A stretch of 57,313 bases of DNA, taken from the NCBI GenBank assembly GCA_964342815.1, contig CAYFHS010000025.1, positions 1 through 57,313 on the forward strand, given 5' to 3'. This stretch comes from an uncultured archaeon. GTDB lineage: Archaea > Thermoplasmatota > Penumbrarchaeia > JASLWR01. Of the stretch, positions 1,354 to 43,400 are shown in pieces; positions within the stretch are counted from its first letter, which is position 1, and each line of letters begins with the position of its first letter. The notes under the pieces were generated by a model that was not told the origin of the DNA, did not search any database, and saw nothing but the letters and a program-made list of their open reading frames with translations. The translations under genes were made by a program, and so were the position numbers.

Positions 1354-3561
1354 GTGATAACCTTGAGAACTGCACGCATATTGATCTGTGGGGTCATTCT
1401 GATCCTTGCGGTTTTTTTCCCGAATGTGGCCGCTGAAAACGATAGTATGAAAGTATTGGTAACAATCGATCGTGAGGAGGATTATTTCGGTGGGGATACG
1501 GGAAAGGTAACGGTGCATGTGTTCGACAAGGGAGAATATATCGAACCGGACGAAATACCCGATTGCAAGATAAAAGGCGGATATTATCCCGATACCGTTG
1601 AAAGGAATATTACTCTCGAAAAGAAATCCGCCGGGATATATGAGGGTGATTTCAAGATATACAGCAGCGACGCCGATGAGCTAAATCGCATGGTGATCAG
1701 CGCAGATGCCTCGTACGGAAAGAGCGATGAAGACGATACGGAATATAATTTGGATGAGGATAGTCAATCCATCGACATCAGTTCCAAGGAAGATGAGGAC
1801 GAGGAAGTGAGCGTAAGTATAATCGACGCACCACCTTCGTTATTTCCGGGTGATACCATAACACTGCGTATCGAGGTGAAAAAGGGAGATGTTCTGACGG
1901 ATGCCGATGAGCTTGACATCAATTATGAATTGGAATACGAGGAGGGGGACCCAGATGAGAACGAACTTCCGTATGACAAGGTGAGTAATGGAATTTATGA
2001 GGCTGTCCTGATCGTTCCTAAAGGAATAAAGGAGAGCTGTCAAATCGATATAACCGCTGAAGCCACTATCGACGAGGATTTCGACTTTGATTTTGAGTCC
2101 GTTAAGATCGATTTCTTCTCTGTATGGTACAAGAAAGGATCACTCGGCGAGACCGTTTGCACTTTCGACGTCTATGTATCTGATGCAGAAGGAAAAGCGC
2201 TTACGAATGCGGATATTAATTTGAACTGGGATGAATGGCGGCGTTCATCAGAGAACGAAGCGACAAAACTCACCGACGGCTCCGGGAAAGCAAGCTTCGA
2301 GATCACCTATGAAGAGGATACGGATGATCTGGAAATAACAGGTAAGATCATGAAGGATGGAAAGACCCAGTTCTTTTCGGGAGTAATCGAGCTGAAGGAG
2401 GATGGCGAAGAGGAAGGAGAATGGGCTGAGCCCGACTATTACGGGATGGACGTCGTTTTCAGAAATAAGCAGCTCTCAGGGGAATCCCCCTACACACTGG
2501 AATGCAGAGCCTTTCTGGAAGGTCAGAGGATATCTAAAAAGGAGGTTTATTATTATATATATGACGATTTAAATGTAATAGCCCATGGAGCCGCCACAAC
2601 GGATATCGATGGTGAATTTTCAATAAAGTTCTCCTACAGTCCCAAGGGATTATTTGATACCATTCGGACATATTTCGAGACCGCCGATGGAGATTATGAC
2701 GGGTGGAGCTGGGATGAACGGAAAAATTCCCTGGATGGAAAGGAATACGCCAGTGAGACTGATTATGTCAGGTTTGAGATAGATGAAGTCCCAGATGTCG
2801 ATTTCGACGATACTTCCATCAAGATCACCGTGAATGAACTGAAACGCGGCGGATTGACTGAGGTTACAGTGACGGGAATCCCGGCGGATATGCTGGCACA
2901 TGTTTCCTGGATTCCCTCCTCGGTTGACAACATCAAGGATATCGATGAATGGGAAAAAACATTCGAATGGAACCAATGGGCCGGCGAGGGACTTATGGCC
3001 CAGGGAACGAGTGTTTCCAACGGGAAGCTCACCTGTGAACTTATGATCCCCGAGTTCATGCCGTCCGGTAAATATACCATCTTTGCGGGATATATCGATG
3101 AATCCGATATCGACGATCCAAATTTTTCACTGGAAGAAGCATATCACATCAACAATGTTATCTTGGAACCCGGTGAATCGGGAACATCCACTGGGACCTC
3201 GGTGGGTTCTCTTTTCAGCAGCGGTGGATTTGTTTGGTTATCGGTCGGGATTTTTATAATTATCCTCGTAGCTATCATTGTTATCATCCTCATGGTAAGG
3301 AGAAAAAAGGGGAAAACCGTGAGTGGATCACCGGAAAAGGATGATCAAGATCATTATCTGGACTCTGATACGATGGTTCAGACTCAGTCTGACCTAAGCT
3401 ATCCCCCACCTTATGAATCACAGACCGAGGCACCCAATACCTTCTATCCCAGACCTCCAAACGATAATCCTCATCCACTAGAACAACAATCGCATATGCC
3501 TCAGCAGGGGCAGTTTCCACCTCCTCCGAGGAGAGGCGGATACCCACCACCTCCATACTAA
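1354..3561 (+). CDS. Acidic secreted, C-terminally membrane-anchored surface protein with Pro/Gln/Tyr-rich cytoplasmic tail
   Basis: Signal peptide, D/E-rich beta-sandwich-like body, TM helix (FVWLSVGIFIIILVAIIVIILMV-RRKK), tail ending GGYPPPPY. Confidence 0.8.
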   Translation: MITLRTARILICGVILILAVFFPNVAAENDSMKVLVTIDREEDYFGGDTGKVTVHVFDKGEYIEPDEIPDCKIKGGYYPDTVERNITLEKKSAGIYEGDFKIYSSDADELNRMVISADASYGKSDEDDTEYNLDEDSQSIDISSKEDEDEEVSVSIIDAPPSLFPGDTITLRIEVKKGDVLTDADELDINYELEYEEGDPDENELPYDKVSNGIYEAVLIVPKGIKESCQIDITAEATIDEDFDFDFESVKIDFFSVWYKKGSLGETVCTFDVYVSDAEGKALTNADINLNWDEWRRSSENEATKLTDGSGKASFEITYEEDTDDLEITGKIMKDGKTQFFSGVIELKEDGEEEGEWAEPDYYGMDVVFRNKQLSGESPYTLECRAFLEGQRISKKEVYYYIYDDLNVIAHGAATTDIDGEFSIKFSYSPKGLFDTIRTYFETADGDYDGWSWDERKNSLDGKEYASETDYVRFEIDEVPDVDFDDTSIKITVNELKRGGLTEVTVTGIPADMLAHVSWIPSSVDNIKDIDEWEKTFEWNQWAGEGLMAQGTSVSNGKLTCELMIPEFMPSGKYTIFAGYIDESDIDDPNFSLEEAYHINNVILEPGESGTSTGTSVGSLFSSGGFVWLSVGIFIIILVAIIVIILMVRRKKGKTVSGSPEKDDQDHYLDSDTMVQTQSDLSYPPPYESQTEAPNTFYPRPPNDNPHPLEQQSHMPQQGQFPPPPRRGGYPPPPY

Positions 3562-3744
3562 GGGAGTTATTTAACTTGATTTAAAGTTTTAAGGGTATCA
3601 TCTGTGGCGTAGTTGAATGTAACTGTGATAAGGCTCCATTACTCCTGGGCAGGGATCTCAAGGGGATTTCTTATGACGGAGTCGGGTAGCTTAAAGGCGA
3701 CGATAAAAATTCCATTCACTTCTTAGTTGCAAATTAAAAAAAAA

Positions 3745-3848
3745 TGCTCCTCGCGGAGATAAAACTACGGTTCATTCCTGAGTCGCACATTTTGAAAATA
3801 AAAATGTGCTCCTAGCGAAGGCAAACCTCGGTTTGCTTCTAAGTCGCA
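3745..3848. repeat. Two tandem imperfect palindromes (TGCTCCT...AGTCGCA) downstream of tRNA-Glu
   Basis: Units 3745-3787 and 3807-3848 both start with TGCTCC, as does the tRNA 3' end at 3865, and both end in AGTCGCA; the second has a GCAAAC-ctcg-GTTTGC hairpin. Confidence 0.75.
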
Positions 3849-3864
3849 TATTTATAAATAAATA

Positions 3865-3959
3865 TGCTCCCGAGGGGATTTGAACCCCTGTCAATGGCTT
3901 TCTCCGTACTGGTCGTACGCGAGAGGCCATTATGCTTGGCCGGACTACACTACGGGAGC
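3865..3959 (-). tRNA. tRNA-Glu(CTC) with 20-nt intron at 37/38 (3900-3919)
   Basis: Acceptor GCTCCCG/CGGGAGC, anticodon stem ATGGC/GCCAT, T-arm AGGGG-TTCAAAT-CCCCT; intron forms a bulge-helix-bulge (CUCU/GGAG central helix, GUAC/GUAC outer helix). Confidence 0.95.
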
Positions 3960-4049
3960 ACGTATAACCAATGATTTTCTGGCGTTATGGCGCTTTTTAT
4001 AGTTAAATGTTATAGTCATATATATCCCGGCTGAAATGAATAAACATCA

Positions 4050-5735
4050 TTACTTTTTCTGCTGTTTCTGAATCCTGGCCCAGGTGTCGCGAAGTCCCAC
4101 GGTCCTGTTGAATACGAGCTTCTCCGAAGTCGTATCCGGGTCCACGCAGAAATAACCCTGACGTTCGAACTGGAATCGATCATATTTTTTCAACTCACTC
4201 ACAGCCGGTTCTACCTTGCAGCTATCGAGTATCGTAAGGGAATCCGTGTTCAATAACTCCTTGTAACTCCTATCCTTTTGTCCAGCCGGATCCTCCACCG
4301 TGAACAACTTGTCGTAAAGGCGTATTTCAGCATCGAGAGCGCGTTCGGCAGAAACCCAGTGCATGGTGGACCGCACCCTGCGGCCGTCCGGAGCATCGCC
4401 GCCCCTTGTCGCCGGATCGATAGTGCATCGAAGCTCCACCACTTCGCCGTTCTCATCGCTTACATAATCATTGCACGTCATGAAATATGCATACCGCAAA
4501 CGCACCTCCCTTCCCGGACCCAACCTGAAGAAGCGCCTCGGTGGATTCACCATGAAATCATCCCGTTCGATATATATTACGCGGGAAAATGGTACCTTTC
4601 GCGTTCCGGCATCCGGGTCCTCAGGGTTGTTCACCGCCGTCATTTCCTCCGTCTCACCTTCCGGATAGTTATCGATGATCACCTTTAGAGGATTCAAAAC
4701 ACCCATGAATCGGAGTGCGGTTTTATTTAGATCGTCGCGGATACAATGCTCGAGAAACTCAATGGCGATGGTGCTGTTCACCTTTGCAACCCCAATGCGG
4801 GAGCAGAAGTTCCTGATGGCAGAAGGGGAATAACCTCGTCTTCGCATTCCGCTTATTGTGGGTAAGCGCGGGTCGTCCCATCCCTTCACGAAACCTTCTT
4901 CCACCAGTTCCAGTAACATCCGCTTGCTCATCACAGTGTAGGTGAGATTGAGGCGTGCGAACTCTATCTGCTGCGGGCGGTAAACGCCAAGTTCCTCGAG
5001 GAACCAATCGTAGAGGGGTCGATGGTTCTCAAACTCGAGAGTGCATATGGAATGCGTGATGCCCTCGATTGAATCCTCAAGGCCGTGGGCCCAGTCGTAC
5101 ATCGGGTATATACACCATTTATCTCCGGTGCGGTGATGGGCTGCGTGAAGTATTCTATATACGACAGGATCCCGCATGTTCATATTCGAATGGGCCATGT
5201 CAATTTTAGCGCGCAACACCTTCTCGCCGTTTTCAAATTCACCTGCCTTCATCCTTTTAAAGAGACCCATGTTCTCCTCAATGCTGCGCTCGCGATGGGG
5301 GCTGTTTCTACCAGCTGATGTTAGCGTTCCCCTGTAATCGCTTATCTTCTCAGCCGGAAGGTCATCCACATATGCATTTCCTGCCTCCACCAGCTTAAGT
5401 GCTAATTCATACATCCGCCCGAAATAGTCCGACGCAAAGAACAGTCGGTCCTCCCAGTCGAATCCCAACCATCGAACGTCCTCGATGATTGATTGCACGT
5501 ATTCAGTTTCCTCCTTCGATGGGTTCGTATCATCGAAACGGAGATTGCATTTTCCCCTGTATTCCCCGGCGATACCAAAGTTCAGGCAGATGGACTTTGC
5601 ATGACCGATATGTAGATAGCCGTTGGGTTCGGGAGGGAAACGCGTGTGTACCCGGCCGTCGTACTTCCCCGTTTCGTTGTCTTCATCGATAATACTGCGG
5701 ATAAAATCATGCAGGGGAGAGTCGGGGGATTTCAT
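4050..5735 (-). CDS. glnS: Glutamine--tRNA ligase, bacterial-type GlnRS
   Basis: [55 protein letters not shown] and FQFERQGYF motifs typical of E. coli-like GlnRS, not archaeal GluRS; GGTGA RBS upstream. Confidence 0.93.
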
Positions 5736-5834
5736 TTCAGCTCACCGGTTTTTTATTAACAAAAAGAAATAATCTGGATATGTAATTGTTTAATATTTCA
5801 GGTTTTCATTGATAAATGGATTTAATGCAGAAGA

Positions 5835-5906
5835 TAGCCCCGAGCAGATTCGAACTGCTGTCCAGAGATCCAGAGTCTCTGATGCTAACCACTACACCAC
5901 GGGGCT
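5835..5906 (-). tRNA. tRNA-Gln(CTG), archaeal type (A1:U72)
   Basis: Acceptor AGCCCCG/CGGGGCT, anticodon arm AGAGA-CTCTGGA-TCTCT, T-arm AGCAG-TTCGAAT-CTGCT, discriminator A. Confidence 0.96.
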
Positions 5907-5943
5907 ACTTTGTTCAGAAACTTTAGGCTCATACCGGATACAC

Positions 5944-5957
5944 AATATATACTTTTT
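5944..5957 (-). promoter_or_regulatory. BRE/TATA box of tRNA-Gln
   Basis: Minus strand AAAAAGTATATATT about 40 nt upstream of the mature tRNA 5' end. Confidence 0.55.
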
Positions 5958-6161
5958 GTAATCCGGTTATTCGATGGATAATATTGTAAATTCAAAGGAA
6001 CGGACCAGCTAAAAAACTTGCTCATTAAAAATATATAATTATTCATATATTAATACTAAATCAATATATCTAGTTTATTTTATTGACATCCCAAAAGCAA
6101 TAATTCCAAAACAGTTTTATCATAAAATTTACATCCAGTTCGTGGATCTTAGGTGATCATC

Positions 6162-7526
6162 ATGCACTTCATTCCAAACTTGTGTTTCAGAGATAAGATG
6201 CTCAAGGACATGGGCATTTCTTCCGTGGAGGAATTGTTCTCGGATATCCCCGACGGCGTTAGGATAGATCGTGTTGATCTACCTCCCGGGAAAACCGAGA
6301 TGGAAGTTGAATACATTATTAAGGATATTACTGCCAAGAACACGGCCTTGAATGAGGTAAATTCATTTCTCGGGGCTGGCGTCTATAATCATTTCATTCC
6401 AGCTGTTGTGGATTATTTATCGTCGAGAAGCGAATTTCTTACCACTTATACCCCATACCAGGGGGAGATCAGCCAGGGCATGCTACAGTGCCTTTTCGAA
6501 TATCAATCATATATCGCGGAATTGACCGGACAGGACATATCCAACTCATCGTTATATGATGCAGCAACGGCCATAGGCGAAGCAGCCATCATGTGCAAGG
6601 CGGTTACCAGAAAAAGAGAGTTCATTGTGGCAAGCCCCCTACCAAAGAGTAAGATGTCGGTTCTCGAAAATTATACCAAATATCAGAATATTGTTATTAA
6701 AACAGTAGACTACGATCCGGTCACCGGTAGGCTTGAGCTTGAAAGTCTGGCTGGTTCCATAAACGGCGATACATGCGGTATTTACGTGGAAAATCCGAAC
6801 TACTTCGGGGTACTGGAAAAAGACATCGCAAGAATACCCGAAATGCTGGGAGAAGGAAGAAAGAGACCCCTTTTCGTGGAAGGGTTCAATCTTTTAACTG
6901 CTCCTTTTGTGGAGAATCCTGGTGAGACCGGTGCCGACGTGGCAATCGGGGAAGTACAATTCGGTAATCCCCCGTCATTCGGCGGACCCGGTGCGGGGTA
7001 CATTGCCTGCAATAAGAAATTCGTGCGCAAGATGCCCGGGAGGTTGATCGGATACACAAAGGATCGTGATGGGGAGGATTCCTATGTCATGACTCTGCAA
7101 ACCCGGGAGCAGCACATACGGAGGGAACGGGCTACTTCCAATATCTGCTCGAACCAGGCATTGTGTGCAGTTAGATGCGCAATGACCCTAGCTTGTCTCG
7201 GACCCAGGGGGTTGTACGAGATGAGTCTTGGCAATCTGACCAATTCCCATCGTCTCCAGGAAGAGCTTTCGAAGATTCACGGTATAAGCGCACCGCGATT
7301 CAAAAGCGATTACTTCAATGAGTTTGTGGTCACAATTGATCCTGATATATTTAATCCTGCAAAACTCTATAACGATCTTCTGAAAATGGGGAATATTTTC
7401 GGTTATCCTCTTGGAATGGATTTTCCCGAACTTGAAAACTCGTTTCTTATCTGCGCTACCGAACTGAATTCAAAAGAATCCATTGATAAATTAATTTCAG
7501 ATCTGAGATCAGTGGGGGTGGTCTAA
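6162..7526 (+). CDS. gcvPA: Glycine dehydrogenase (decarboxylating) subunit 1
   Basis: FLGAGVYNHFIP, YTPYQGEISQG, YVMTLQTREQHIRRERATSNICSNQAL; GGTGA RBS favours ATG 6162. Confidence 0.96.
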   Translation: MHFIPNLCFRDKMLKDMGISSVEELFSDIPDGVRIDRVDLPPGKTEMEVEYIIKDITAKNTALNEVNSFLGAGVYNHFIPAVVDYLSSRSEFLTTYTPYQGEISQGMLQCLFEYQSYIAELTGQDISNSSLYDAATAIGEAAIMCKAVTRKREFIVASPLPKSKMSVLENYTKYQNIVIKTVDYDPVTGRLELESLAGSINGDTCGIYVENPNYFGVLEKDIARIPEMLGEGRKRPLFVEGFNLLTAPFVENPGETGADVAIGEVQFGNPPSFGGPGAGYIACNKKFVRKMPGRLIGYTKDRDGEDSYVMTLQTREQHIRRERATSNICSNQALCAVRCAMTLACLGPRGLYEMSLGNLTNSHRLQEELSKIHGISAPRFKSDYFNEFVVTIDPDIFNPAKLYNDLLKMGNIFGYPLGMDFPELENSFLICATELNSKESIDKLISDLRSVGVV

Positions 7527-9028
7527 TGGCTTACCGGCAGGCAAAATATGATGAACCTCTGATATTTGAGATGGGTTGCAGCGATAAACAGTCGGTATGC
7601 TTTTCAAAGGAATGTCAGGACCCGACCTTGATCGCGAAATTCATCCCGAAAGAGATCAGGAAAAAGGAAAGCGTGAACATCCCGGGTCTAACCGAGGTCG
7701 AAATTGCACGCCATTACACCCGTCTCTCACAGATGAACTGGGGCGTGGACAGCGGTTTCTATCCACTGGGGTCCTGTACCATGAAATACAATCCGAAATT
7801 CTCGGAGAAAATGGCTTCTCTAGAACGTTTTTCTCTTACCCACCCGATGCAGCCAGTGGATATGGTACAAGGAAATCTTGAACTAATATATGAACTGGAA
7901 AAAACTCTCTCAGTTATCGGCGGTGTTGAAGCAGTGACGCTTCAACCTGCGGCTGGAGCTCACGGCGAGTTTACCGGCCTTCTCATTGCCCGGGCCTTCC
8001 ATGAAGCGAACGGGGAAGAACGCGGCGAGGTGATATTACCGGATACGGCCCACGGCACAAATCCGGCAAGCGGAGCAATGGCCGGGCTCAAGGTTATCGA
8101 GATTCCATCTGAAGAGGACGGCTGCGTGAACTTAGAAGCATTGGAGGCAGCTCTATCTGAAAGAACATGTGCTTTCATGCTTACTAATCCGAATACTCTC
8201 GGTATATTCGAAAGACAGGTGCAGGAGATCGCAGAAAAGGTGCATTCTTACGGAGCTCTTCTGTACTATGACGGCGCTAATCTCAACGCAGTAATGGGAA
8301 AGACGACGCCTGGAAAGATGGGATTCGATATAGTACATTTCAATCTTCACAAAACATTTGGGACTCCACACGGTGGAGGCGGACCCGGGGCAGGTCCCAT
8401 CGGCGTTACGAAAGAGCTGGAGAAATTCCTTCCGATACCTCGCATTGTAAAACGAGTGGGAGATGAGAGTTCGGTAAAATTTGAACTAGAACATACACAA
8501 CCATATTCGATAGGTAGGATCCACGGCCAGCTGGGGAATTTTCTCGTCCTTGTGAAGGCATACGTCTATATAATGCTGGTGGGTGGAGACGGTCTTGAGA
8601 AAGTTTCGGAAGCAGCGGTAATGAATTCGAATTATCTGAAAATGAAACTTGAGCATTTGTTCCCTCTGCCATATCCGGGACTCCGAAAGCATGAATTTGT
8701 CTTGAACGGAAGTATTCTCAAGAAAAAGGGTGCAAGCACTTTAGACGCGGCAAAATGGCTTCTCGATGAAGGAATTCACGCTCCTACCATTTATTTTCCG
8801 CAAATATTCCACGAGGCCATTATGATCGAGCCTACCGAGACAGAGACCATTGAGGAGATGGACCGGTTCATAAAGGCAATGGAGGCTATTGCAGAATCCG
8901 ATGGGGAAGAACTGAGGAATTGCCCGCAAAATACCGCTAGAAAGAGACTGGATGAGACCTTTGCCGCAAAGAACATGATATTCACGTACAGGGCTTTATT
9001 GGAATGGCGTGAAAAGAATTCGCTTTAA
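7526..9028 (+). CDS. gcvPB: Glycine dehydrogenase (decarboxylating) subunit 2
   Basis: FYPLGSCTMKYNP, QPAAGAHGE, HFNLHKTFGTPHGGGGPG (PLP lysine); start overlaps gcvPA stop. Confidence 0.96.
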   Translation: MAYRQAKYDEPLIFEMGCSDKQSVCFSKECQDPTLIAKFIPKEIRKKESVNIPGLTEVEIARHYTRLSQMNWGVDSGFYPLGSCTMKYNPKFSEKMASLERFSLTHPMQPVDMVQGNLELIYELEKTLSVIGGVEAVTLQPAAGAHGEFTGLLIARAFHEANGEERGEVILPDTAHGTNPASGAMAGLKVIEIPSEEDGCVNLEALEAALSERTCAFMLTNPNTLGIFERQVQEIAEKVHSYGALLYYDGANLNAVMGKTTPGKMGFDIVHFNLHKTFGTPHGGGGPGAGPIGVTKELEKFLPIPRIVKRVGDESSVKFELEHTQPYSIGRIHGQLGNFLVLVKAYVYIMLVGGDGLEKVSEAAVMNSNYLKMKLEHLFPLPYPGLRKHEFVLNGSILKKKGASTLDAAKWLLDEGIHAPTIYFPQIFHEAIMIEPTETETIEEMDRFIKAMEAIAESDGEELRNCPQNTARKRLDETFAAKNMIFTYRALLEWREKNSL

Positions 9029-9053
9029 TTTTTTTATAATGGGTGACAGGACA

Positions 9054-10025
9054 ATGTTCGTTCTTGGTCTCGAAGGAACTGCGCATACACTAGGTGCAGG
9101 TGTTGTGGACGGTGAGGGAAACGTTCTTTCCAATGTTAGGGATATGTATCGACCGCAAAAAGGAGGAATTCATCCCAGGGAAGCGGCCAACCATCATGCC
9201 GCCGTTCTTCATACAGTAGTTAGCGAAAGCCTAGAGACCGCGGGGATAACTGCGCGTGAACTTGGCTTGATAGCATTTTCCCAGGGCCCCGGTCTCGGGC
9301 CATGCCTGAGGAGTACGGCAACGGCGGCCCGGGCGCTGTCACTCTGGCTTGATGTACCAATGGTTGGAGTAAACCACTGCGTCGCCCATCTCGAGATAGG
9401 AAAGACCGTAGGTGCGGGGGACCCTATCCTTCTTTATGCATCGGGAGCCAACACCCAGGTCATCGCAAAAGCAAAGGGTCGATATCGTGTGTTCGGTGAA
9501 ACACAGGACATCGGCGTTGGGAACATGTTAGATAAGTTCGGTAGAATGCTGGGAATGCCTTTTCCGGCAGGTCCGAAGATCGAAAAAATGGCATTGGAAA
9601 GTGATGAATACATACAGCTTCCGTATTCGGTAAAAGGGATGGATGTGGCATTTTCAGGTGTCCTGACAGCCGCATTGTCCAATAAAGGAAAAGTGCCTAT
9701 CTCATCACTTTGTAATTCGCTTCAGGAGACTGTATTCGCCATGCTAACCGAGGTAACAGAAAGAGCAATGGCGCATACCGAGAAGGGGGAAGTGCTTCTT
9801 GGGGGTGGGGTTGCCATGAACAAGCGGCTTCAGCAGATGGTTCGGACTATGGCCGAAGAGAGAAAAGGAGTTTTTTTCGTCCCTCAGGGTGGACTTCTGG
9901 TTGATAACGGCGCAATGATCGCTTTTACAGGACTTGAAATGTACAAGGGTGGTATAACCACTGCAATTGAGGAATCCCAGGTTAACCAGAACTACAGGAC
10001 CGACGACGTGGAAGTGCTGTGGTAA
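9054..10025 (+). CDS. kae1: tRNA N6-threonylcarbamoyladenosine synthase Kae1 (stand-alone, not fused to Bud32)
   Basis: LGLEGTAHTLG, GGIHPREAANHH, GPGLGPCLR, VNHCVAHLEIG, LYASGANTQ, DNGAMIA; GGTGA RBS before ATG 9054. Confidence 0.95.
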   Translation: MFVLGLEGTAHTLGAGVVDGEGNVLSNVRDMYRPQKGGIHPREAANHHAAVLHTVVSESLETAGITARELGLIAFSQGPGLGPCLRSTATAARALSLWLDVPMVGVNHCVAHLEIGKTVGAGDPILLYASGANTQVIAKAKGRYRVFGETQDIGVGNMLDKFGRMLGMPFPAGPKIEKMALESDEYIQLPYSVKGMDVAFSGVLTAALSNKGKVPISSLCNSLQETVFAMLTEVTERAMAHTEKGEVLLGGGVAMNKRLQQMVRTMAEERKGVFFVPQGGLLVDNGAMIAFTGLEMYKGGITTAIEESQVNQNYRTDDVEVLW

Positions 10026-10165
10026 TCTTTCGAAACTAAAATATTACACCCTCGCAGCTGTCTTCATCTCCGACGGCAACGGGACAAGAGTTTTATAGTG
10101 GGATTCTGATTTCTTCCAGAATAATAAATCCTTTTTCAAAACCGCAGCAGGTAGGAGGGCAATTT

Positions 10166-12613
10166 ATGTATCATATTTCAAAATACTTATACATAATAGG
10201 GCTGGTGCTGATATTTGGAATTAATCTCCCCAATTTACAAATAACGGAGGAAGCAATCATTACATCCACTACTTTTTTCTCTCACATCGGAAATTATCAA
10301 TTTGATTTGAACGATAACTGCATCCAAACCTCCTGGGAGGATGCAAACGAGATAAATGCTGATAGTATATTCAATTCAGACCCGAAAGCTGAACCGGAGA
10401 AGGGATTAATACTAATCGGGCTCGGAATGGTAATTATCTTCATCATACTTGGTGTTCTCCATTACTATAAAAAGAAAAGAGAAAAAGAAGATAATCAAAG
10501 GACTAGTGAAATGGCGAAACTAAGAACCAAAAATATCGAGAATTCCGAGAAATCGATCCCCAAAACAGGAAGGAAACATGAAAAAGAAAGTTCGAGACAT
10601 TATCCTGCTTCATATGCAGAAAGAACAAAAGCAGGACTGCCGTCAAAAGAATTGGAAAAAGCCCGGAAGAAAATGATGAGGGGGGATTCTTTCTCAAGGA
10701 AAAAGGCTTTAAAGTTATTTCACGAAGCAGTGGAAAAAGAACCAGCGAACTTCGTATATAACGTAGAAGCTATCATACCCTGCCTCGAGGATAAGGACAA
10801 CTCGGTAAAGAAAGAAACCCTCCGGCTTATCGAGAAAGCGGGAGTGATGTACTCGGATGAGTTCATTGATTCCATTGATGACATTGTGAACCTCTTGGTA
10901 CATGACGACAAGGGGATAAGAAAAGCGGTTCGGGGTGCGCTCACAGTTCTGGGTATGGAATCCGATGAAGCAGAGAAGGGAATACTCCGTTCGATTGATA
11001 ATAAGTACAAGATATTAATGGAGAAGGGCTCACTCCGTGAAGGTTTTCTTCCGTATTGCCTTTCATTGAACAAATTTCTGGTGAAACTCGGAAAGAACCG
11101 AAATGAGAGCATACCTGAGATCATGAACATTCTACTTAGATGTATCACCTATCCTATATACAGGCCAGAGCAGAGCGAGGATAAGGAAGAAGAACTGTAC
11201 CGGGATAGCGGAAATTCCATTTGCATTCTCTCTGAATATGCCCCCGGATCGATCCCGCTGGTCCTTCCGAAGATACTCAAGGTCCTCTCCGATACTTATA
11301 CCTTCGAGAATTGGAATAAAGATGCGGAAGCCAAAGAAAGCTTGCGAAATGTTTACCAGGATAACTTCATACGCTTAACATCCGGTGACCCGAAGTATTT
11401 CATTATTTCGCTTCTGAAGAGCGCTTCATCCACTAACAGCACCATGGTACGACTGGTTCATGAGAGGGTATTGGGAATGGCTGATGAAGACTTTGTTTCT
11501 GTGGTTCACTCCGTCATCGGTGCCTTCGACAGTGGTGATGAGAACATAAGAAATAATGCAGAGGATATGGTTGAAAGGATTGCGCCCATAGATCTGACAT
11601 CCAGTTCTGAAATTCTAATGAAATACATCAGTGGGGAAAACGAAAGGACCGCACGTTACTCGGTGAGAGTATTGAAAAACCTGCTTGAAAGTACAGAGCT
11701 CGCACCATTAAATGACCTTAATCCTATACTGAAAATTATGGACAGTCACTCCAACGAGCTTCGCCGCGAGGCGGTGGCCCTCTTAGGAAGAATCATCGAA
11801 AGGGACAAATCACAGGCCAACCAATGCATGAAATTCATCGTGAAGGCCCTGAAACAAGAATGGGGAGTTCGCTTGGAAGCCTTATCATCACTGTCACTTA
11901 TCTCTAAGGGTGACCCGATACTCAGAAAATTCTCTATTCCCTTCATTATCGAAGGACTACAGGACAAGCATGAACAGGTGAGGTGGCGGGCTTCGAATAT
12001 ATTAAAAGAACTCGATATTTATGAAAAGGACATTAAGCATTATGAATCAGCGCGGAGACAGATGGACCTGGCCGAACCCAAGCTTGCGGAACTCCACAAG
12101 GGTACCGCCCTGGATCTAAATGAAATAGTCGATGAGCTCTCAAAGGCTAAGGAGATGATAAGGTCGACCAATTACAGACAGGCAGACCTCCATGCCACAC
12201 GCACCAACGAGATGTTGATCGACCTTCAAGCGAGGAATAAACCTGAGGTTGATATGGTCATGAAGGAGAAAACGAAGTTTATAGTCGGAATACACACCCC
12301 ATTCAAACTTATACTGCTGAATACTGGTATGGTTCACATTTTCGATATTTCCATAGAGTTCTCAGAGAATGTGGAAATCATCGAGGAGGCTCCAGTATAC
12401 GTTAAAGCGGGGGGAGAGCAGGATATGTCCCTTGCATGGACTCCCCTGAGGGGTGGTAGAATTCCTCTAAAGGTAACATGTTCATTTAAGGAGAAGAACG
12501 GTGCCGTAAGGGGTTTCAATAAAGACATCTGGGTCGATGTTCGGGCAGAAGATTTTATCGAGGAGGATGCATCTGTAACTGTGGGGGTTTTGTGGGATAT
12601 GCTTTTGATATGA
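10166..12613 (+). CDS. Membrane-anchored HEAT-repeat protein with C-terminal Ig/CARDB-like domain
   Basis: N-terminal hydrophobic segment, TM followed by KKKR, HEAT-like repeats (e.g. GLQDKHEQVRWRASNIL), helical linker, beta-rich C-terminus. Confidence 0.75.
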   Translation: MYHISKYLYIIGLVLIFGINLPNLQITEEAIITSTTFFSHIGNYQFDLNDNCIQTSWEDANEINADSIFNSDPKAEPEKGLILIGLGMVIIFIILGVLHYYKKKREKEDNQRTSEMAKLRTKNIENSEKSIPKTGRKHEKESSRHYPASYAERTKAGLPSKELEKARKKMMRGDSFSRKKALKLFHEAVEKEPANFVYNVEAIIPCLEDKDNSVKKETLRLIEKAGVMYSDEFIDSIDDIVNLLVHDDKGIRKAVRGALTVLGMESDEAEKGILRSIDNKYKILMEKGSLREGFLPYCLSLNKFLVKLGKNRNESIPEIMNILLRCITYPIYRPEQSEDKEEELYRDSGNSICILSEYAPGSIPLVLPKILKVLSDTYTFENWNKDAEAKESLRNVYQDNFIRLTSGDPKYFIISLLKSASSTNSTMVRLVHERVLGMADEDFVSVVHSVIGAFDSGDENIRNNAEDMVERIAPIDLTSSSEILMKYISGENERTARYSVRVLKNLLESTELAPLNDLNPILKIMDSHSNELRREAVALLGRIIERDKSQANQCMKFIVKALKQEWGVRLEALSSLSLISKGDPILRKFSIPFIIEGLQDKHEQVRWRASNILKELDIYEKDIKHYESARRQMDLAEPKLAELHKGTALDLNEIVDELSKAKEMIRSTNYRQADLHATRTNEMLIDLQARNKPEVDMVMKEKTKFIVGIHTPFKLILLNTGMVHIFDISIEFSENVEIIEEAPVYVKAGGEQDMSLAWTPLRGGRIPLKVTCSFKEKNGAVRGFNKDIWVDVRAEDFIEEDASVTVGVLWDMLLI

Positions 12614-20898: not shown

Positions 20899-21229
20899 GG
20901 TTCTTTCACCCAAAATGTCATTGTAAAAAGTGTGATGGGTGTAAAATCTATTTAAAAATATTATATTTACTTTTTACATAATGATATCCATACTGATTTT
21001 GGGTGATATCTCAACAAGATATGAAATTACCTTTTGAGATATTAACAAGAAAAGTTGTCCGAGGCAGCTGATAATTATACCACAATTCCCTGGTGACGTA
21101 TCCCCTCCAACTTGAAAAATGTCCTACCATCCTCAAGAAATACTTTCAAAGAACATTAAACAAATGTATAATCGGTCAAAATACAGAAAAAATCTAAATA
21201 GTAAAATCTTTGTTCATTCAAGTGATAAC

Positions 21230-24200
21230 ATGGAAATTAGGAGAAACATTGTATTGATATTATTCGCCACATTTCTGATGACAGTAACAAATTTTCCACA
21301 TTTTGTTTCTGATATTTCCTCCATTCAAGGAGTACCCGCTTCTGGACGTCGCGGTTCCTTAAGGGTGAACACAACCGGTTCGGGTGATTACACAGCCATC
21401 CAGGCTGCCATCGACAATTCCAGTACAGGTGACACTATTATTGTTGATCCGGGAACATATACCGAAAATATCACCATATCCAAGTCCCTTCAACTGGTGG
21501 GTTCCGGTCCGGATGCGACGGTGATCGAGGGAGAAGGAGCAAGTAATGTCGTGTTCATCAACGCTAGCTGGGTGAACGTTAGCGGTTTCAATATCAACAA
21601 CTCTGAAATGGGATTTGGCTGCTCGGGTTTGTACATTTATGACTCCAATAACTGCAAGGTTGACAACAATCTGTTTACGAATTGCTGGAACGGAATTCAC
21701 TCGGTTCATTCGGAGGGTAATACTTTCTCGAATAATACTTTTTTACAGATTCGAGCAAATGCGATCGGTCTGAATAATTCGAATTTCACCAATATTATTA
21801 ATAATACTTGCGAATCCGAGGAAGCTGAGGGGGCATATCTATTTGAGTCGCATTGGAATATCATCAGAGACAATATCTATGATAACAATGATTTTGGGAT
21901 CTATATTATTGGAACGAACAACTCGATATATAACAATTCATGTAATTCAAATTCAATGCAGGGCATCATACTTTTACGATCCGGGTTTAACCAGGTATAC
22001 AACAATACCTGCAATTGGAATTCTATGTACGGAATACTTATTTCAGAGTCAAATTTTAATTTAATATTCAGCAATATATGTGATGGAAATAGGGATTCGG
22101 GTATTTACGCCATATCCTCGGAATCCAACAGTATCTTCAACAACACCTGCGATGAAAATTGGGATGATGGAATCCATATCCGATATTCCCATAACAACGA
22201 GATTTTCAGCAATACCTGTAAAGATAATTGGTATCGAGGTATTTATCTCGACAATTCTTTTTCAAACTATATAAAGGATAATAACTGTTATTCGAATTCG
22301 TACGGAATTTATTTAATGGAATCTCGATATAATAACGTATTCAGTAATGAATGTGAATTTAATAATTATGGAATTCAAATCGATTATTCCTTATTAAATT
22401 CTGTAATCAACAACAGTTGTGAATCAAATAATGATGGTATAAATATTTTAAACTCCGAATCCAATAATATCACAGGAAATATATGTTATGATAATAATGC
22501 AGATGGGATTGAAATTTCTTCCTCAAGTTCTAACTACGTATCTGATAATATATGCGAGTCAAATTATTATAGTGGTATTCGCATATATAGATCGGACCTC
22601 AATCTCTTGATAAATAACACATGTATCCTGAATCGATACGATGGTCTATCTCTTTATAATTCTAATGAAAATATTATAGTGAACAACACCAGTAAAAACA
22701 ATTTCGGAGAAGGCGTTCACCTTGATGAATCCGATTCCAATGAGATATTGAACAATAACTTTAATTCAAATCGCCGAGGAATCTACCTTTATAATTCCGA
22801 TAATAACGAAATATTCAACAATGGATGCGATTATAATTCTAGGGATGGAATATACATCTCCTTTTCTCATTCCAACGAACTATTCAACAATACATTCACC
22901 GAAAATCAACGTGAAGGTATTTCTATCTCTAATTCGGACTGGAACTCCATCGAGAACAATACCTGTGATCTAAACACATGGAATGGATTATCCTTGTATT
23001 ATTCCGATAATAATAATTTATCTAAGAATAACTGTTCATTCAATGAAGATGATGGTATAATTCTATATAGTTCTCAACAAAACAATGTTCGGAATAACAG
23101 TATTAGTTCGAATAATAATGGAATCGTGCTCAGTCATTCTTCATCAACTAATTTAACTGAAAATACTTGCCGGTACAACAGAGAGGATGGGATAAAAATT
23201 TCTTCATCTCATCGGAACTATGTACGGAATAACAGTATCAATTCAAATAATAATGGTATCCTCCTTCGCTTTTCGTATTGGAACGTTGTAACCGGAAATA
23301 TCTGTATGAACGTCAATACAGGTATATACTTATATTTATCTGATGACAACATAATCTCGGGTATCAAGAGTGAAAATAATGTTTACGGTATCAAGCTTTA
23401 CGGTGCCTTTAGCAATCTGTTGTCCGATTCTATATTTTCTTTGAATAAAAGAGATGGCATATATATTGAGGAATCCAACAATAATATTATACTAAATAAT
23501 ACAATTTTATCGAACAATGGAAATGGTACTACACTGAACCAATCCTATAATAATATAATTTATAACTGTCAATTTGAGGATAATTACAACGGTATCTCTA
23601 ATTCAGAGGGTTGGAAAAACGATTTTTCTAATAATGATATTATTGACGGTAAAGGATCCGGTATTGCTCTGTTTTACTCACAAAATACGATTATCACATA
23701 TAATTCAATTTCTGACAATTCGGAATGTGGCATATACCTTACCGGATCGATCAACAACACCATCCACCATAACGACCTCATTCACAGCCAGCACCAGGTA
23801 TCCCTTGCCTATGACGATGGATGGAACAACTCCTGGGATGACGGCACAGAAGGTAATTACTGGTCCAATTATCTTTTCCACAACTATAATGCGGGAACAT
23901 ACGGCAAGATATGGGATATTCCTTATCAAATAGAAGGTAATTCCAGCCAGGATAATTGTTCGCTGCGTTTCCCTGTAGACCGGTATCTCGAGATCCCCAT
24001 CGCCTGCGCCGGACCTGATATGACCATTGATCAGTTCGATAAGTTCGTTTTCAACAGTACTCTCAGTTTTGATCACATAGGTATCGAAAACTTTTCATGG
24101 TCCTTCCGTTATGATGATCGCGAAGTGAAGATATTTGGCCCCTCTCCTTCGTTCGGTTTCAATATTATGGGTGTATATGAAATTCTATTGACTGTAAATA

Positions 24201-25804
24201 ATTCACGGGGAGAAACGGATGATGACACTTTTTTCATTACCGTTCTGGACAGGGAACCACCATGGATAGGTGTTTACGAGAATATTACGATAGATCAACA
24301 TGAATCCGCTGTCTTCAATGCCGGTAATTGCTCCGATAACCGCGGTATCGTTAACATTACATGGATGGTGGAATATCTTGACTTAAAATATTTTCGGTAT
24401 GGTATGACCAGCAATTTCACCTTCCCCGAAGCTGGATTCTACCCGGTAACGATCCTCCTCAATGATTCACGAAATAATACGAATCAGAGTACATTCTATG
24501 TCCAGGTAAGGGACATTACACCCCCGCTTGCTGTGGGGGGTGGAGATCAGACCGTGGACCAGTATGAAAGATTCTATTTGGATGCTTCCTGGAGCGAGGA
24601 TAACGTTGGAATCTTGCGTCATACATGGACATTTTACTACAATGAAAAGAACTGGACCTGCGGTGGATCGCAAATGGATTTTACTTTTTACGAAGCGGGC
24701 AAATATATCATCGTCCTGAATGTAAGCGATGAAGCTGGTAACTGGGCGATAGATCTGGTAACAATTACCGTTTTGGATGTCGAGGCCCCACTAGCAGACG
24801 CCGGAGGGAATCTTACTGCAAAGGTCGGAGTAGAAATGAAATTCAATGGAACAGCAAGCTTGGATAACGTTGGAATCCATAATTACAGCTGGAGCTTTCC
24901 CTTTCTTGGAGCCCAGATGGTATTGTACGGACCTGCACCGGAATACACCTTTACTGACCCGGGAATGTATCAGATCAAACTTAATGTAACCGATAAAGCC
25001 GGAAACAGCAATTTCGATACCATTTTTGTTTTCGTAGAGATTGATAACGATGATCAAGAAATACCTGAAGAAGAGGAACCTGATAAAAATGAAAAAACGG
25101 ATAAGGATAGCATCAGTTTCTACATATGCTCCGGAATACTAATAGCTTCGATCTTGGTGGTGGTTTTAAATGGCCTGTATAAAAAGAAAAAATTACGAAA
25201 TCCTCAGGGGAAAGCGGAAGAAGTGAATGTTAGTGGAATGATCGATGATATTTCTGATTCATTTTTCAAGAAAAGAGAAGACGAGGACTACGATTATTGT
25301 CTGCCAAAAGTGGTATTAAGGAAAAAGGAAGCTGAACCCACCAGGGTGCCCAGGGCCAAACAGCCTGAAAAGAAAAAAGTAATGGTAAAGGTTGTACGGA
25401 AAAAGAAAATAGAAAAGGAGACACGAGGACCCGATACATCTGATATGGAAGTTATGGAAGTCGAACCGTTAGATCTGACAGATGAGTATGGAGCTTTCAA
25501 TGGAGATGAGAATTCTGAACTAAAGGCTGAGGAGCATAAGAAAGAACAAAAGGAGATACATGGTGGCGATATATATTCGGAATCAAAAGATGAAGATCAT
25601 GGAACTGATGAGAAAGAAAAAGATATTGATGCGGACTCAGCTGAAACAGAATTTGAAGAAGAGATGGATGAAGAAGAGAAATCAATTGAGGAGTTCATGA
25701 TCTCAATAAAGGCCGAGATCGAAGCTTTGGAAGCAGGAGATGATTTTAAGGATGGGTTTTTGCAGGGTTACGAAAGAGCGTTGGAAGAATTAAGAGGTGA
25801 TTAA
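21230..25804 (+). CDS. Large surface protein: parallel beta-helix (NosD/CASH-like) repeats, 4 PKD domains, TM anchor, acidic tail
   Basis: Dozens of GIxLxxSxxNxIxNNxxxxN repeats, DxxxPxAxAGxD-type PKD starts, TM before KKKK, charged C-terminus; ATG 21230 precedes a signal peptide. Confidence 0.88.
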   Translation: MEIRRNIVLILFATFLMTVTNFPHFVSDISSIQGVPASGRRGSLRVNTTGSGDYTAIQAAIDNSSTGDTIIVDPGTYTENITISKSLQLVGSGPDATVIEGEGASNVVFINASWVNVSGFNINNSEMGFGCSGLYIYDSNNCKVDNNLFTNCWNGIHSVHSEGNTFSNNTFLQIRANAIGLNNSNFTNIINNTCESEEAEGAYLFESHWNIIRDNIYDNNDFGIYIIGTNNSIYNNSCNSNSMQGIILLRSGFNQVYNNTCNWNSMYGILISESNFNLIFSNICDGNRDSGIYAISSESNSIFNNTCDENWDDGIHIRYSHNNEIFSNTCKDNWYRGIYLDNSFSNYIKDNNCYSNSYGIYLMESRYNNVFSNECEFNNYGIQIDYSLLNSVINNSCESNNDGINILNSESNNITGNICYDNNADGIEISSSSSNYVSDNICESNYYSGIRIYRSDLNLLINNTCILNRYDGLSLYNSNENIIVNNTSKNNFGEGVHLDESDSNEILNNNFNSNRRGIYLYNSDNNEIFNNGCDYNSRDGIYISFSHSNELFNNTFTENQREGISISNSDWNSIENNTCDLNTWNGLSLYYSDNNNLSKNNCSFNEDDGIILYSSQQNNVRNNSISSNNNGIVLSHSSSTNLTENTCRYNREDGIKISSSHRNYVRNNSINSNNNGILLRFSYWNVVTGNICMNVNTGIYLYLSDDNIISGIKSENNVYGIKLYGAFSNLLSDSIFSLNKRDGIYIEESNNNIILNNTILSNNGNGTTLNQSYNNIIYNCQFEDNYNGISNSEGWKNDFSNNDIIDGKGSGIALFYSQNTIITYNSISDNSECGIYLTGSINNTIHHNDLIHSQHQVSLAYDDGWNNSWDDGTEGNYWSNYLFHNYNAGTYGKIWDIPYQIEGNSSQDNCSLRFPVDRYLEIPIACAGPDMTIDQFDKFVFNSTLSFDHIGIENFSWSFRYDDREVKIFGPSPSFGFNIMGVYEILLTVNNSRGETDDDTFFITVLDREPPWIGVYENITIDQHESAVFNAGNCSDNRGIVNITWMVEYLDLKYFRYGMTSNFTFPEAGFYPVTILLNDSRNNTNQSTFYVQVRDITPPLAVGGGDQTVDQYERFYLDASWSEDNVGILRHTWTFYYNEKNWTCGGSQMDFTFYEAGKYIIVLNVSDEAGNWAIDLVTITVLDVEAPLADAGGNLTAKVGVEMKFNGTASLDNVGIHNYSWSFPFLGAQMVLYGPAPEYTFTDPGMYQIKLNVTDKAGNSNFDTIFVFVEIDNDDQEIPEEEEPDKNEKTDKDSISFYICSGILIASILVVVLNGLYKKKKLRNPQGKAEEVNVSGMIDDISDSFFKKREDEDYDYCLPKVVLRKKEAEPTRVPRAKQPEKKKVMVKVVRKKKIEKETRGPDTSDMEVMEVEPLDLTDEYGAFNGDENSELKAEEHKKEQKEIHGGDIYSESKDEDHGTDEKEKDIDADSAETEFEEEMDEEEKSIEEFMISIKAEIEALEAGDDFKDGFLQGYERALEELRGD

Positions 25805-40478: not shown

Positions 40479-43400
40479 ATGAGGAGGATGTTGTCATTTA
40501 TTGTTCTGTTCCTTCTGCTTCCCCCCTCGTTCTCCTGTTTTTCACCGGTTTTCTCAAAGGTCAATGAAGCTTGGGTAAACTGCGAGGGTCATTTATCAGA
40601 TAACTTCAGCTCGGAAATATATTTCCAACGCAGCGATTTGGATGCGAATAATGGAAGCAATATCGAACAGGATTACATTGGGGGTTCCTGGTTTAATGGT
40701 TTTGACGATGAAAAGAGGTGGGATTCATTTGAGAATGTGACCGTGGATAACGGGAAAGTTAGATTGGCTGACAACCGAATAACACCTAATGGGAATAGTG
40801 TAGGATTGTGGCATTTTGATGGGGGAGTCGGTTCCAAGGTTTTGGATTCCAGTGGGAATAACAATCACGGAGCCCTGCTGGGCGGATACCGGAACGATGG
40901 TCGTTTCGGAAAAGCTATACAGCTTGACGGAAATAACAATCATATTGAGGTCCCGACATCAGTGTCCCTGAACGTCTCTCGTAATATCACTCTTGAGGCT
41001 TGGATAAAAAGAGAGGAATCATACACAGCTGAAAGTATACTTTCGAAAGGGCCCTACGCAGTCAAGGTCGCAGCTGACGGAAGGGTATTTATGGAGATCA
41101 ATAACGGCTCCGAAACAATGGTTAACCGTGGATCGATTGGTCATGGTTTTGCCAAATCGCTTGTGAGCTATGATGGGAAGCTCTACGGTGGGACTACGTC
41201 AGGTAGGGTCTATATCTATAACGGCGGGACAAACTGGAGTAGTGTCGGACGCTTAGGAGCTAGTGTTTCTGTTTTTTCCCTTGCAGTACACGAAGGGGAA
41301 TTATATGGAGCCACCCATCCCAACGGTAGGCTATTCCGGTATAATGGTAAGGAAGATTGGATTGATGTTGGAAGATTGGGTGATGCCGTATCAGTGATAT
41401 CGTTAACAGTCTACAACGGTAAACTCTACGGTGGTACCGATCAATATGCGAAGGTTTTTCGGTATGATGGTGGTGCAACATGGAGCGAAGTGGGCCAATT
41501 GGAGGCAGACAAGGACGGCGAAGCTTACTCCATGACCGTCTACAACGGCAAGTTATACTGCGGTCACCGTCCATCGGCAAGAGTTCACCATTTCGATGGT
41601 AATTCTTGGACCAATACTGGCAAACTTGGTACTCCCGGAGCCAATAGTAACGTGGAAACCCTTGCTGTTTACAAGGGTAAACTATATGGAGGAACGTATC
41701 CTGAAGGAGCGGTTTATCGGTATAACGGGGGGGCCGGATGGACAAATGTGGGCAAGCTTGGGGACAACACGGCCTCGGTGACCATGGCGGTTTACAATGG
41801 CAATCTCTATGGAGGAGGAGGTCATAGTAGTGGAATGCCCGCTACTGTATATCGGTATGAAGGTGGAAGCAATTGGGAATCCCTTCCCTCGTCGAGCAGT
41901 TTTATAAAAGCAACTTCTTTTGTGACCTATGATGGAAAATTATTCATAAGTACACGTGAGAACGATTTTGTCTATTCCATGGGTGACGGTCTTGCTGTTT
42001 ATTCTCCTACCCCGATCCCCCGCGACGATTTCGTTCACATAGGTGCTACTTACAACGGTACAATGGCAAATCTATTCATTAACGGAGAAAAGGTAAACTC
42101 GTCGCATAAGGAAATAAATCTGGGTATTACTCGGTCAAATCTTCTCATCGGGAGTTCCCATGGATCTTCAAAAGGTGGGAGGTCCGGGAGCGGTGATGAA
42201 CATTTTAAAGGCATCATCGACGAGGTTTCAATATTCGATAAGGCGCGGTCAGTAGATGAGATCCGTCTCCATAACTATAGATATCGTCATAATGCAACCA
42301 TAAATAGTGAAAATATCACGCTCCCGAACGGGATGAACTGGTCTGTCCTATCAGTCTGTAAAACTGAGTCCCTCAATACAAATATCACAATAGACATTAT
42401 CGACACAAATGAGGCTAAGGTGATAGAGGGTTATAACGACCTGGCCTTTAGCAATGTAAATATATCGAACATTACTTCTTCAAGTATTCGCTTGGATTTC
42501 CATCTCTCGGGTAACGGCAGTGCCGTTCCTTTCCTCGTTTCATCCGGGATCGAATGGACTGCTGCAAATGGATGGAGGGACAGTTTTTCCGGGAGCAGCG
42601 GATCCCGTCTAAATCCGGAGACACCTGCAGTTATAGATAACGGTCATGCCCGGCTAAAATTCAATCGTGCGTCACCGGATAATACTTCGGGATTATGGGC
42701 TTTTGACGATGGATTTGGGGATATTGCGCGTGATCTATCAGGGAACATGAACAATGGAACCCTGAGCGGAGCAAAATGGGCTGTTGGTAGAATGGGTGGA
42801 GGACTGGAATTCGACGGGATAGACGATCATGTGAATATCGAGCTTAACGCCTCCGAGTCCTCTTACACCATGGAAATGTGGTTCAGAACTAATGATCCCA
42901 ACTGCGGATTATTTTCAACCGTGAGAGGTAACTTGGGGATTGGGGGTCATGACAGGGATATTTATCTAAAAAACGGAGATCTCCGCGCTAGGATTTTAGC
43001 AGATGAGACCGTAACCACGCAGGGAGTAAATTACAGCGATGGTAATTGGCACCATCTGGTGCATGTATTCGGAGGTGAGGAGGGAGGTCAAAAACTCTTT
43101 ATCGACGGGATCGAAAAGGCGGGTGGAAGAAAATCCGCCTCTGATTTCCACCGGCAGACCGGAATTATTATTGGGTATTCGCGGGATGCGGACCTTAAAT
43201 ATTTCAATGGTACCATTGACGAGGTCACCATTTATGATCGGGCATTATCCTCTGATTCGATAATCGCTCGCTCCCGCCTTTTTCAGTCGAATGCAACACT
43301 TCGCAGCAGAGACATTCAAATTCCCAACGGAAATACATGGCGTTTTCTTAAATTCAACCGTACTTTACACCGAAATACCTATCTCAATATATCTTTTCAC

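Follow-up and report, generated by a model that had tools for sequence, protein, structure and literature searches.

Reviews up to 2022 state that glutaminyl-tRNA synthetase (GlnRS) occurs in no archaeon, and explain this by a peculiar archaeal tRNA-Gln that is unusable by GlnRS (PMC2978374, PMC9499178). One paper of 2022 words the lack as 'almost all archaea', citing Di Giulio 2020, and a 2024 preprint places a GlnRS gene beside cox genes in Heimdallarchaeia (bioRxiv 10.1101/2024.07.04.601786); no paper analysing archaeal GlnRS was found in the open full-text literature. In the archaeal indirect route a glutamyl-tRNA synthetase of the non-discriminating kind (ND-GluRS) acts together with the amidotransferase GatDE, which recognises the A1:U72 pair of tRNA-Gln (PMC2330236); the bacterial GlnRS possesses an unpairing loop that acts on a weak 1:72 pair and a G36-recognition loop that the solved archaeal ND-GluRS (PDB 3AII, from M. 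thermautotrophicus) lacks (PMC2978374). The present analysis concerns glnS, a bacterial-type GlnRS gene found beside a tRNA-Gln gene in a 57,313-nt contig (CAYFHS010000025.1; the whole stretch is hereafter referred to as the window) of an uncultured marine archaeon of the phylum Thermoplasmatota. A functional GlnRS of bacterial descent very probably charges the archaeon's own tRNA-Gln directly and has replaced ND-GluRS and GatDE in the family to which this genome belongs (hereafter the window family), a reading drawn from comparative sequence evidence.

The synthetase and its tRNA-Gln

The glnS gene is an uninterrupted open reading frame (ORF) of 561 amino acids that begins with ATG and occupies 4050..5735 of the minus strand, just as an earlier note on this DNA had claimed, and the four GlnRS motifs quoted there are all present in the translation. 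A Shine-Dalgarno-like GGTGA, likewise pointed out in the note, was read from the sequence at 5742..5746 (-), 6 nt upstream of the ATG, and would serve as the ribosome-binding site. The protein scores 720.4 bits with the NCBIfam glnS equivalog TIGR00440 (cut-off 425.8) and 359 bits with the archaeal GluRS model TIGR00463, under the cut-off of 401.75; Pfam recognises the class Ic catalytic domain (PF00749) and both beta-barrel anticodon domains (PF03950, PF20974). The top-scoring NCBIfam model is the GlnRS/YqeY fusion NF011291 (869 bits), the match to which is confined to positions 13-563 of its 769. The protein thus has no YqeY tail, as had been claimed, and the name 'GlnRS/YqeY fusion' that the archaeal homologues carry at NCBI is a misnomer. 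Identity with E. coli GlnRS is 55% over 548 residues, from residue 10 in both proteins to the end, in keeping with the reported lack of a eukaryotic N-terminal extension, and the C-terminus lies 6 residues beyond that of the E. coli enzyme. The human and yeast GlnRS chains align to the window protein only from residues 262 and 249. The PDB matches rank as 5BNZ (699 bits), E. coli (686), Deinococcus (523), human (468) and yeast (411), followed by GluRS; many bacterial GlnRS among the matches listed are 60-71% identical to the window protein, and the GluRS of the same genome is 32% identical in the catalytic domain.

Functional residues were compared, in E. coli numbering, across 49 members of the archaeal GlnRS clade described below and 77 bacterial GlnRS. 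The class I signatures LHIGHAKS and TVMSKRM are found in the window translation, with His40, His43 and Lys270 invariant in the archaeal clade. The glutamine pocket (Arg30, Tyr211, Cys229, Gln255) is intact in the window protein and throughout the 49 clade members, which likewise keep HIGH, Lys270, Arg341, Arg402, Arg410, Gln517 and Arg520. The window protein retains the G36-recognition loop and the anticodon contacts Arg341, Arg402, Arg410, Arg412, Gln517 and Arg520, and its unpairing loop YRGTLT aligns with that of E. coli, Leu136 being kept here and in 43 of the 49. Asn occupies position 235 in the window protein and in 46/49 clade members, and Asp in 44/77 bacteria; in the E. coli complex this position contacts the tRNA pairs 2:71 and 3:70, and D235N in E. 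coli GlnRS is a known relaxed-specificity change. The window gene is predicted with high confidence to be a resident and functional GlnRS.

The tRNA-Gln(CUG) gene reported next to glnS is confirmed at 5835..5906 (-), 99 nt upstream, by Aragorn and Rfam (59.3 bits); its ends were set from the T-arm, the acceptor pairing and the fold, those given by Aragorn being off by 1-2 nt. It has A1:U72, G2:C71, C3:G70, the discriminator A73 and an 8-nt D-loop. A weak first pair (A1:U72, rarely G1:U72), G2:C71 and C3:G70 occur in all the archaeal tRNA-Gln examined. As the weak 1:72 pair serves GatDE and the bacterial unpairing loop alike, this element suits both systems, and Asn235 of the archaeal GlnRS appears to fit C3:G70. 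The two tRNA-Gln of the window genome differ at the discriminator, with A73 in the CUG tRNA and G73 in the UUG tRNA (contig C5:66445-66519). For the tRNA-Gln of E. coli, G73 counts among the identity elements. Several Bacteroidota tRNA-Gln near glnS also have A73, which is thus no bar to all bacterial-type GlnRS.

Host genome and the routes to Gln-tRNA

The window genome comprises 4.35 Mb in 116 contigs (88.9% complete, 3.2% contamination) and possesses an archaeal 16S rRNA; a thermosome subunit (808 bits), an archaeal-type alpha subunit of phenylalanyl-tRNA synthetase (PheRS), Kae1 and an intron-bearing tRNA are encoded on the same 57-kb contig, so that the archaeal chromosome earlier proposed is borne out. 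The proposal that the gene is domesticated agrees with its G+C content at third codon positions (GC3), which is 0.60 (91st percentile of the long ORFs of the genome) against 0.58, 0.60 and 0.63 for the genes of GluRS and of aspartyl- and asparaginyl-tRNA synthetase (AspRS, AsnRS). A 14-kb Logan contig from a marine metagenome, possibly the source sample, spans 3000-7200 with zero differences, and short contigs of other studies, identical in sequence, bridge 5631-5972 (from the start of glnS to past tRNA-Gln) as well as 3787-4049 and 4024-4192 (from the downstream tRNA-Glu to the end of glnS), so that both junctions of glnS are covered. A 90%-identical glnS stands beside kae1-gcvPB-gcvPA in three independent assemblies (JGI, ENA and NCBI). 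Among the public runs holding this DNA, no RNA run is listed.

None of gatD, gatE, gatA and gatB was found in the window genome at its 88.9% completeness, and the window family as a whole, with its four genomes (89-93% complete; 91-93% for the three relatives), yielded neither gatD nor gatE, which upholds the earlier suggestion that GatDE has been replaced. AsnRS is present (C2:304417-305700; 425.6 bits, cut-off 342.6), and with GatD, GatE, GatA and GatB not found, direct charging looks like the sole route in the window genome. That it is the only route to Gln-tRNA in the window family can be held with good confidence, limited by the completeness of the genomes.

The distribution of the two routes was examined in 401 species genomes of the phylum Thermoplasmatota. 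GlnRS occurs in 75 of them, of which 74 pass the cut-off and one is truncated where its contig ends; the carriers come from at least a dozen families, and several large families have none. The apparent glnS remnant in G016 was rejected as such, the gene being merely cut by the contig end. By the tally from the profile-search listings, GatE is present in 46 and missing in 29 of the 75 genomes with GlnRS, and present in 319 and missing in seven of the 326 genomes without it, a cross-table that carries no statistic and in which related genomes are not independent. GatE is thus missing in 36/401 genomes, 29 of which carry GlnRS, and its loss is seen in at least six families. Two GlnRS carriers assembled as single contigs lack GatE, namely G324 (2.32 Mb), which also lacks GatB, and G396 (1.92 Mb). 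Three states thus exist in the phylum, with GatDE alone, with GlnRS alone and with both. Of the seven genomes without GlnRS and GatE, four belong to f21, a mostly GlnRS-carrying family, and three of these four have a G73 tRNA-Gln as in its GlnRS-carrying members, which suggests that glnS is unassembled in the three.

Two further observations concern the amidotransferase. Eight genomes (G004, G007, G011, G015, G017, G021, G025 and G036), several of them also GlnRS carriers, have two full-length GatE matches each, over the cut-off and on separate contigs. G012, of the same class as the window genome (family f9; a single 3.58-Mb contig, 78% complete by markers), is without GlnRS, GatE and GatB and yields no BLAST hit for tRNA-Gln(CUG); none of the known routes to Gln-tRNA can be seen in it, and its GluRS is encoded at G012:C1:1021267-1022433 (L181).

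G73 in tRNA-Gln was considered as a mark of GlnRS carriers and rejected: strict G73 occurs in 39/75 carriers and also in 13 GlnRS-less, GatE-bearing genomes of the families f36, f41 and f42, and the window CUG tRNA has A73. In such genomes of these three families a tRNA-Gln combines G73 with a long D-loop (for example G147:C1:1217168-1217237 and G253:C1:829477-829546), so that A73 is not universal in archaeal tRNA-Gln. The D-loop measures 9 nt in the sampled relatives that have GatDE alone (G004, G027, G038), in family f7 and in most other GatE-keeping carriers (7-8 nt in some), and of 7-8 nt in most GatE-less lineages, including the CUG tRNA of the window family, in what is a small sample; a tie between D-loop shortening and GatE loss is only a lead.

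In a genome without amidotransferase, GluRS must reject tRNA-Gln, since Glu would otherwise be placed at Gln codons. The GluRS of the window genome, encoded at C1:315451-317187, is archaeal (511 bits to 3AII). It was compared with those of 25 relatives in a sequence alignment in which the conserved RL(K/R) strand served as the anchor for mapping positions. An insertion is common to the window family (four genomes); its length is 6-12 residues against all other relatives and about 15 against 3AII, and it occupies the loop that immediately precedes the RLKD strand, which is the position of the G36-recognition loop in GlnRS. This family-specific insertion is a candidate basis for the rejection of tRNA-Gln. 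A GluRS signature common to all GatE-less lineages was not found among the 25 relatives, the insertion being present in the window family only. As a separate observation, the GluRS of families f21 and f10 (L193-L197 and L190) are 30-33% identical to that of the window genome and score about 340 bits on the glnS model, as against about 210 for the other type; this divergence and score indicate two GluRS types in the phylum.

The direct charging proposed for the window family may be pictured as follows. The anticodons CUG and UUG would be read by the conserved Arg341, Arg402, Arg410 and Gln517, the weak A1:U72 would be opened by the conserved unpairing loop with its Leu136, and C3:G70 would be tolerated owing to Asn, not Asp, at position 235. 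The enzyme would accept both A73 in the neighbouring CUG tRNA and G73 in the UUG tRNA, and GluRS would reject tRNA-Gln, the insertion in its anticodon-binding domain being the candidate cause.

Several points weigh against this reading. The adjacent tRNA-Gln keeps A73 and its efficient charging is assumed; the absence of the amidotransferases is not proven for a single genome that is 88.9% complete; the 46 carriers that still have GatE imply that the presence of GlnRS alone does not make it the main route; and the GluRS insertion is one lineage-specific event, with the GatE-less G008, G039 and family f21 having none. The second and third of these points would allow GlnRS to be redundant, with GatDE encoded in the unassembled 11% of the genome and both routes coexisting as in most carriers. 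This is improbable, as four separate genes are missing from the window genome, gatD and gatE are both missing from every genome of the family, and the single-contig relatives of another family show that the GatE-less state is real. A somewhat smaller chance attaches to a GlnRS that has drifted, so as to charge one isoacceptor only, to act as a tRNA-Gln-specific GluRS-like enzyme or to take a non-translational role, with Gln-tRNA made by an unknown route. The differences between the two tRNA-Gln of the genome at position 73 (A versus G) and at 3:70 speak for such drift, and the relative G012 makes unknown routes conceivable; but the pocket residues that separate GlnRS from GluRS are conserved throughout the 49 clade members, the equivalog score is far above its cut-off, and GatE loss across the phylum is almost confined to GlnRS carriers. 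Least probable is an artefact of assembly or binning that joined a bacterial fragment to archaeal DNA. The many bacterial GlnRS of 60-71% identity among the matches listed and the Planctomycetota label of one close homologue would be in line with it; against it, glnS lies 4 kb inside the 57-kb contig with archaeal-type tRNAs on both flanks and with the thermosome, archaeal PheRS and Kae1 genes on the same contig, both junctions are bridged without differences by contigs of other studies, the neighbourhood is matched in the JGI, ENA and NCBI assemblies, 47 relatives have the gene, mostly in the same tRNA cassette, and its codon composition is like that of the host's aminoacyl-tRNA synthetase genes. 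A resident GlnRS serving as the direct route in the window family therefore remains the preferred explanation.

Descent and neighbourhood of glnS

Two quick trees were calculated, the first from the archaeal GlnRS and the 80 most similar bacterial GlnRS and the second with more rows. All 51 archaeal GlnRS rows fall in one clade nested among bacterial GlnRS and far from the genome's own archaeal GluRS. The clade has full support in the first tree, where the GluRS stands on a branch of length 10; in the enlarged tree the support is 88 for the archaeal rows alone and 100 together with a small bacterial sister group made up of candidate division TA06 and three nearly identical sequences, two of which belong to Planctomycetota contigs, assembled independently, of metagenome-assembled genomes (MAGs). 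The Planctomycetota contig lies inside the archaeal clade in the first tree and is sister to it in the enlarged one, so that the trees disagree on the donor. The two Planctomycetota contigs (L093 and L172, glnS at 10001-11695) are truly bacterial, with tRNA-Arg(ACG), KdsD/KdsC-family genes and MutS2. The GlnRS of P0089 (TA06 DG_24) is, like these, sister to or inside the archaeal clade. The Planctomycetota and TA06 enzymes could either stand close to the donor or have been acquired secondarily from archaea. Of the earlier suggestion of a bacterial transfer domesticated by this one lineage, the transfer stands; it is not private to the lineage, being old and present in about a fifth of the sampled phylum. 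The question left open there, whether such genes are already known from MAGs, is answered by the annotation of homologues in public MAGs, the close ones being labelled at NCBI as Thermoplasmatales, Thermoplasmata or Methanomassiliicoccales archaeon. Thermoplasmatota GlnRS genes are thus already annotated by NCBI and poorly described in the literature.

The history after entry into the phylum is less clear. A single bacterial entry could have been followed by movement of the cassette between families together with its tRNA-Gln rather than by vertical descent, a possibility to be taken seriously and given somewhat less than an even chance. Family labels are scrambled inside the archaeal clade: of the GlnRS of the window family, that of G000 branches separately together with metagenomic sequences, that of G002 falls within family f7, and that of G003 belongs to a third subclade in the enlarged tree and is unplaced near the base of the clade in the first. 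The window GlnRS is 76-78% identical to those of family f21 as against 70% to that of G002, a member of its own family, and the gene is almost always accompanied by tRNA-Gln(CUG). On the other side, the inner branches are weakly supported in the quick trees, the comparison was made without a species tree, and conservation of the flanking gcvP and kae1 extends, among the relatives checked, to the closest ones only. On the present comparison, the cassette may plausibly have moved within the phylum. A fuller scenario, offered only tentatively and somewhat more doubtful than such movement, is a stepwise replacement of which the window family would be the end point. A single bacterial GlnRS would have entered, its acceptor-stem reader relaxed (Asn235), and the D-loop of tRNA-Gln shortened once recognition by GatDE was unneeded; GatDE would have been lost several times, and the GluRS of the window family would have gained a base-36 loop and become the first archaeal discriminating GluRS, independently of the bacterial and eukaryotic routes.

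The tRNA cassette around glnS is completed by a tRNA-Glu(CUC) gene at 3865..3959 (-), 90 nt downstream (Rfam tRNA, 52.8 bits). The 20 nt at 3900..3919 (-), after position 37 (37/38), are placed here as an intron, the splicing of which is predicted: the insert forms a helix with the anticodon stem in the precursor fold, and its removal leaves a 75-nt tRNA-Glu cloverleaf with the anticodon loop CUCUCGA. The Aragorn label Ser(aga) for this tRNA was rejected, as intron removal gives tRNA-Glu(CUC). Relatives have an intron-less tRNA-Glu(CUC) at the equivalent place, and no other tRNA-Glu(CUC) was found in the window genome. In the loci of 47 relatives tRNA-Gln(CUG) nearly always precedes glnS; downstream of the gene, families f1, f5 and f7 have tRNA-Glu(CUC), and family f21 has tRNA-Gln(UUG), in many cases with tRNA-Glu(UUC) next. 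Ten of the 80 closest bacterial loci have a tRNA-Gln within the stretch compared and most have none. At one relative's locus (L105:3223-3295; G040, family f13), a second tRNA-Gln-like gene with A73 lies 3' of glnS, and its anticodon loop misfits normal U33-CUG reading.

The divergent neighbours gcvPA, gcvPB and kae1 (6153..10025 (+); Pfam) provide context and mark conserved host synteny. Elsewhere in the window, 10166-12613 (+) encodes an 815-aa protein made up of HEAT-like repeats, which matches HEAT_2, Adaptin_N and Cnd1 of Pfam weakly, and three giant ORFs of 1561, 1986 and 1981 aa are located at 21119-25804, 40479-46439 and 49074-55019 (+).

Comparison with known systems

New here are a family without either amidotransferase, the retention of A73 in the tRNA-Gln next to glnS, a cross-table of GlnRS and GatE for the whole phylum sample, the GluRS insertion and the warning that GlnRS-less families, too, can have G73. 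With a bacterial-type GlnRS next to a tRNA-Gln of archaeal style (A1:U72, A73) and no amidotransferase in the family, the hypothesis of a tRNA barrier can be put directly to the test with two natural tRNAs (A73 and G73) of one genome. The three states in one phylum offer a natural series for the swap of an essential translation pathway; an archaeal discriminating GluRS is predicted, with a candidate loop indicated. On the practical side, the NCBI name 'GlnRS/YqeY fusion' is wrong for the archaeal proteins.

Compared with E. coli GlnS (PDB 1GTR/1QTQ) and with 5BNZ, the window enzyme is alike in domain order and length, and keeps HIGH, VMSKR, the glutamine pocket, the unpairing loop, the G36-recognition loop and the anticodon-binding arginines; it differs from E. 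coli GlnS in its archaeal host, in Asn at position 235 and in the setting of its gene between tRNA genes. The adjacent tRNA-Gln has A1:U72, C3:G70 and A73 where that of E. coli has U1:A72, G3:C70 and G73. The Deinococcus-type GlnRS (PDB 2HZ7; NF011291) supplies the best NCBIfam model, but its C-terminal YqeY is absent here. From the archaeal indirect route, represented by the ND-GluRS 3AII with GatDE, an archaeal GluRS and the A1:U72 acceptor stem of tRNA-Gln are retained, whereas the window family yielded neither GatD nor GatE, and its GluRS has about 15 extra residues before the RLKD strand. The GlnRS of Heimdallarchaeia is also archaeal, but belongs to another phylum and another gene neighbourhood. 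The other Thermoplasmatota GlnRS cassettes annotated in NCBI MAGs belong to the same clade and are likewise linked to tRNA-Gln; the window is set apart from them by tRNA-Glu(CUC), not tRNA-Gln(UUG), downstream of glnS, by an adjacent tRNA-Gln that keeps A73 and by the apparent loss of both amidotransferases in its family.

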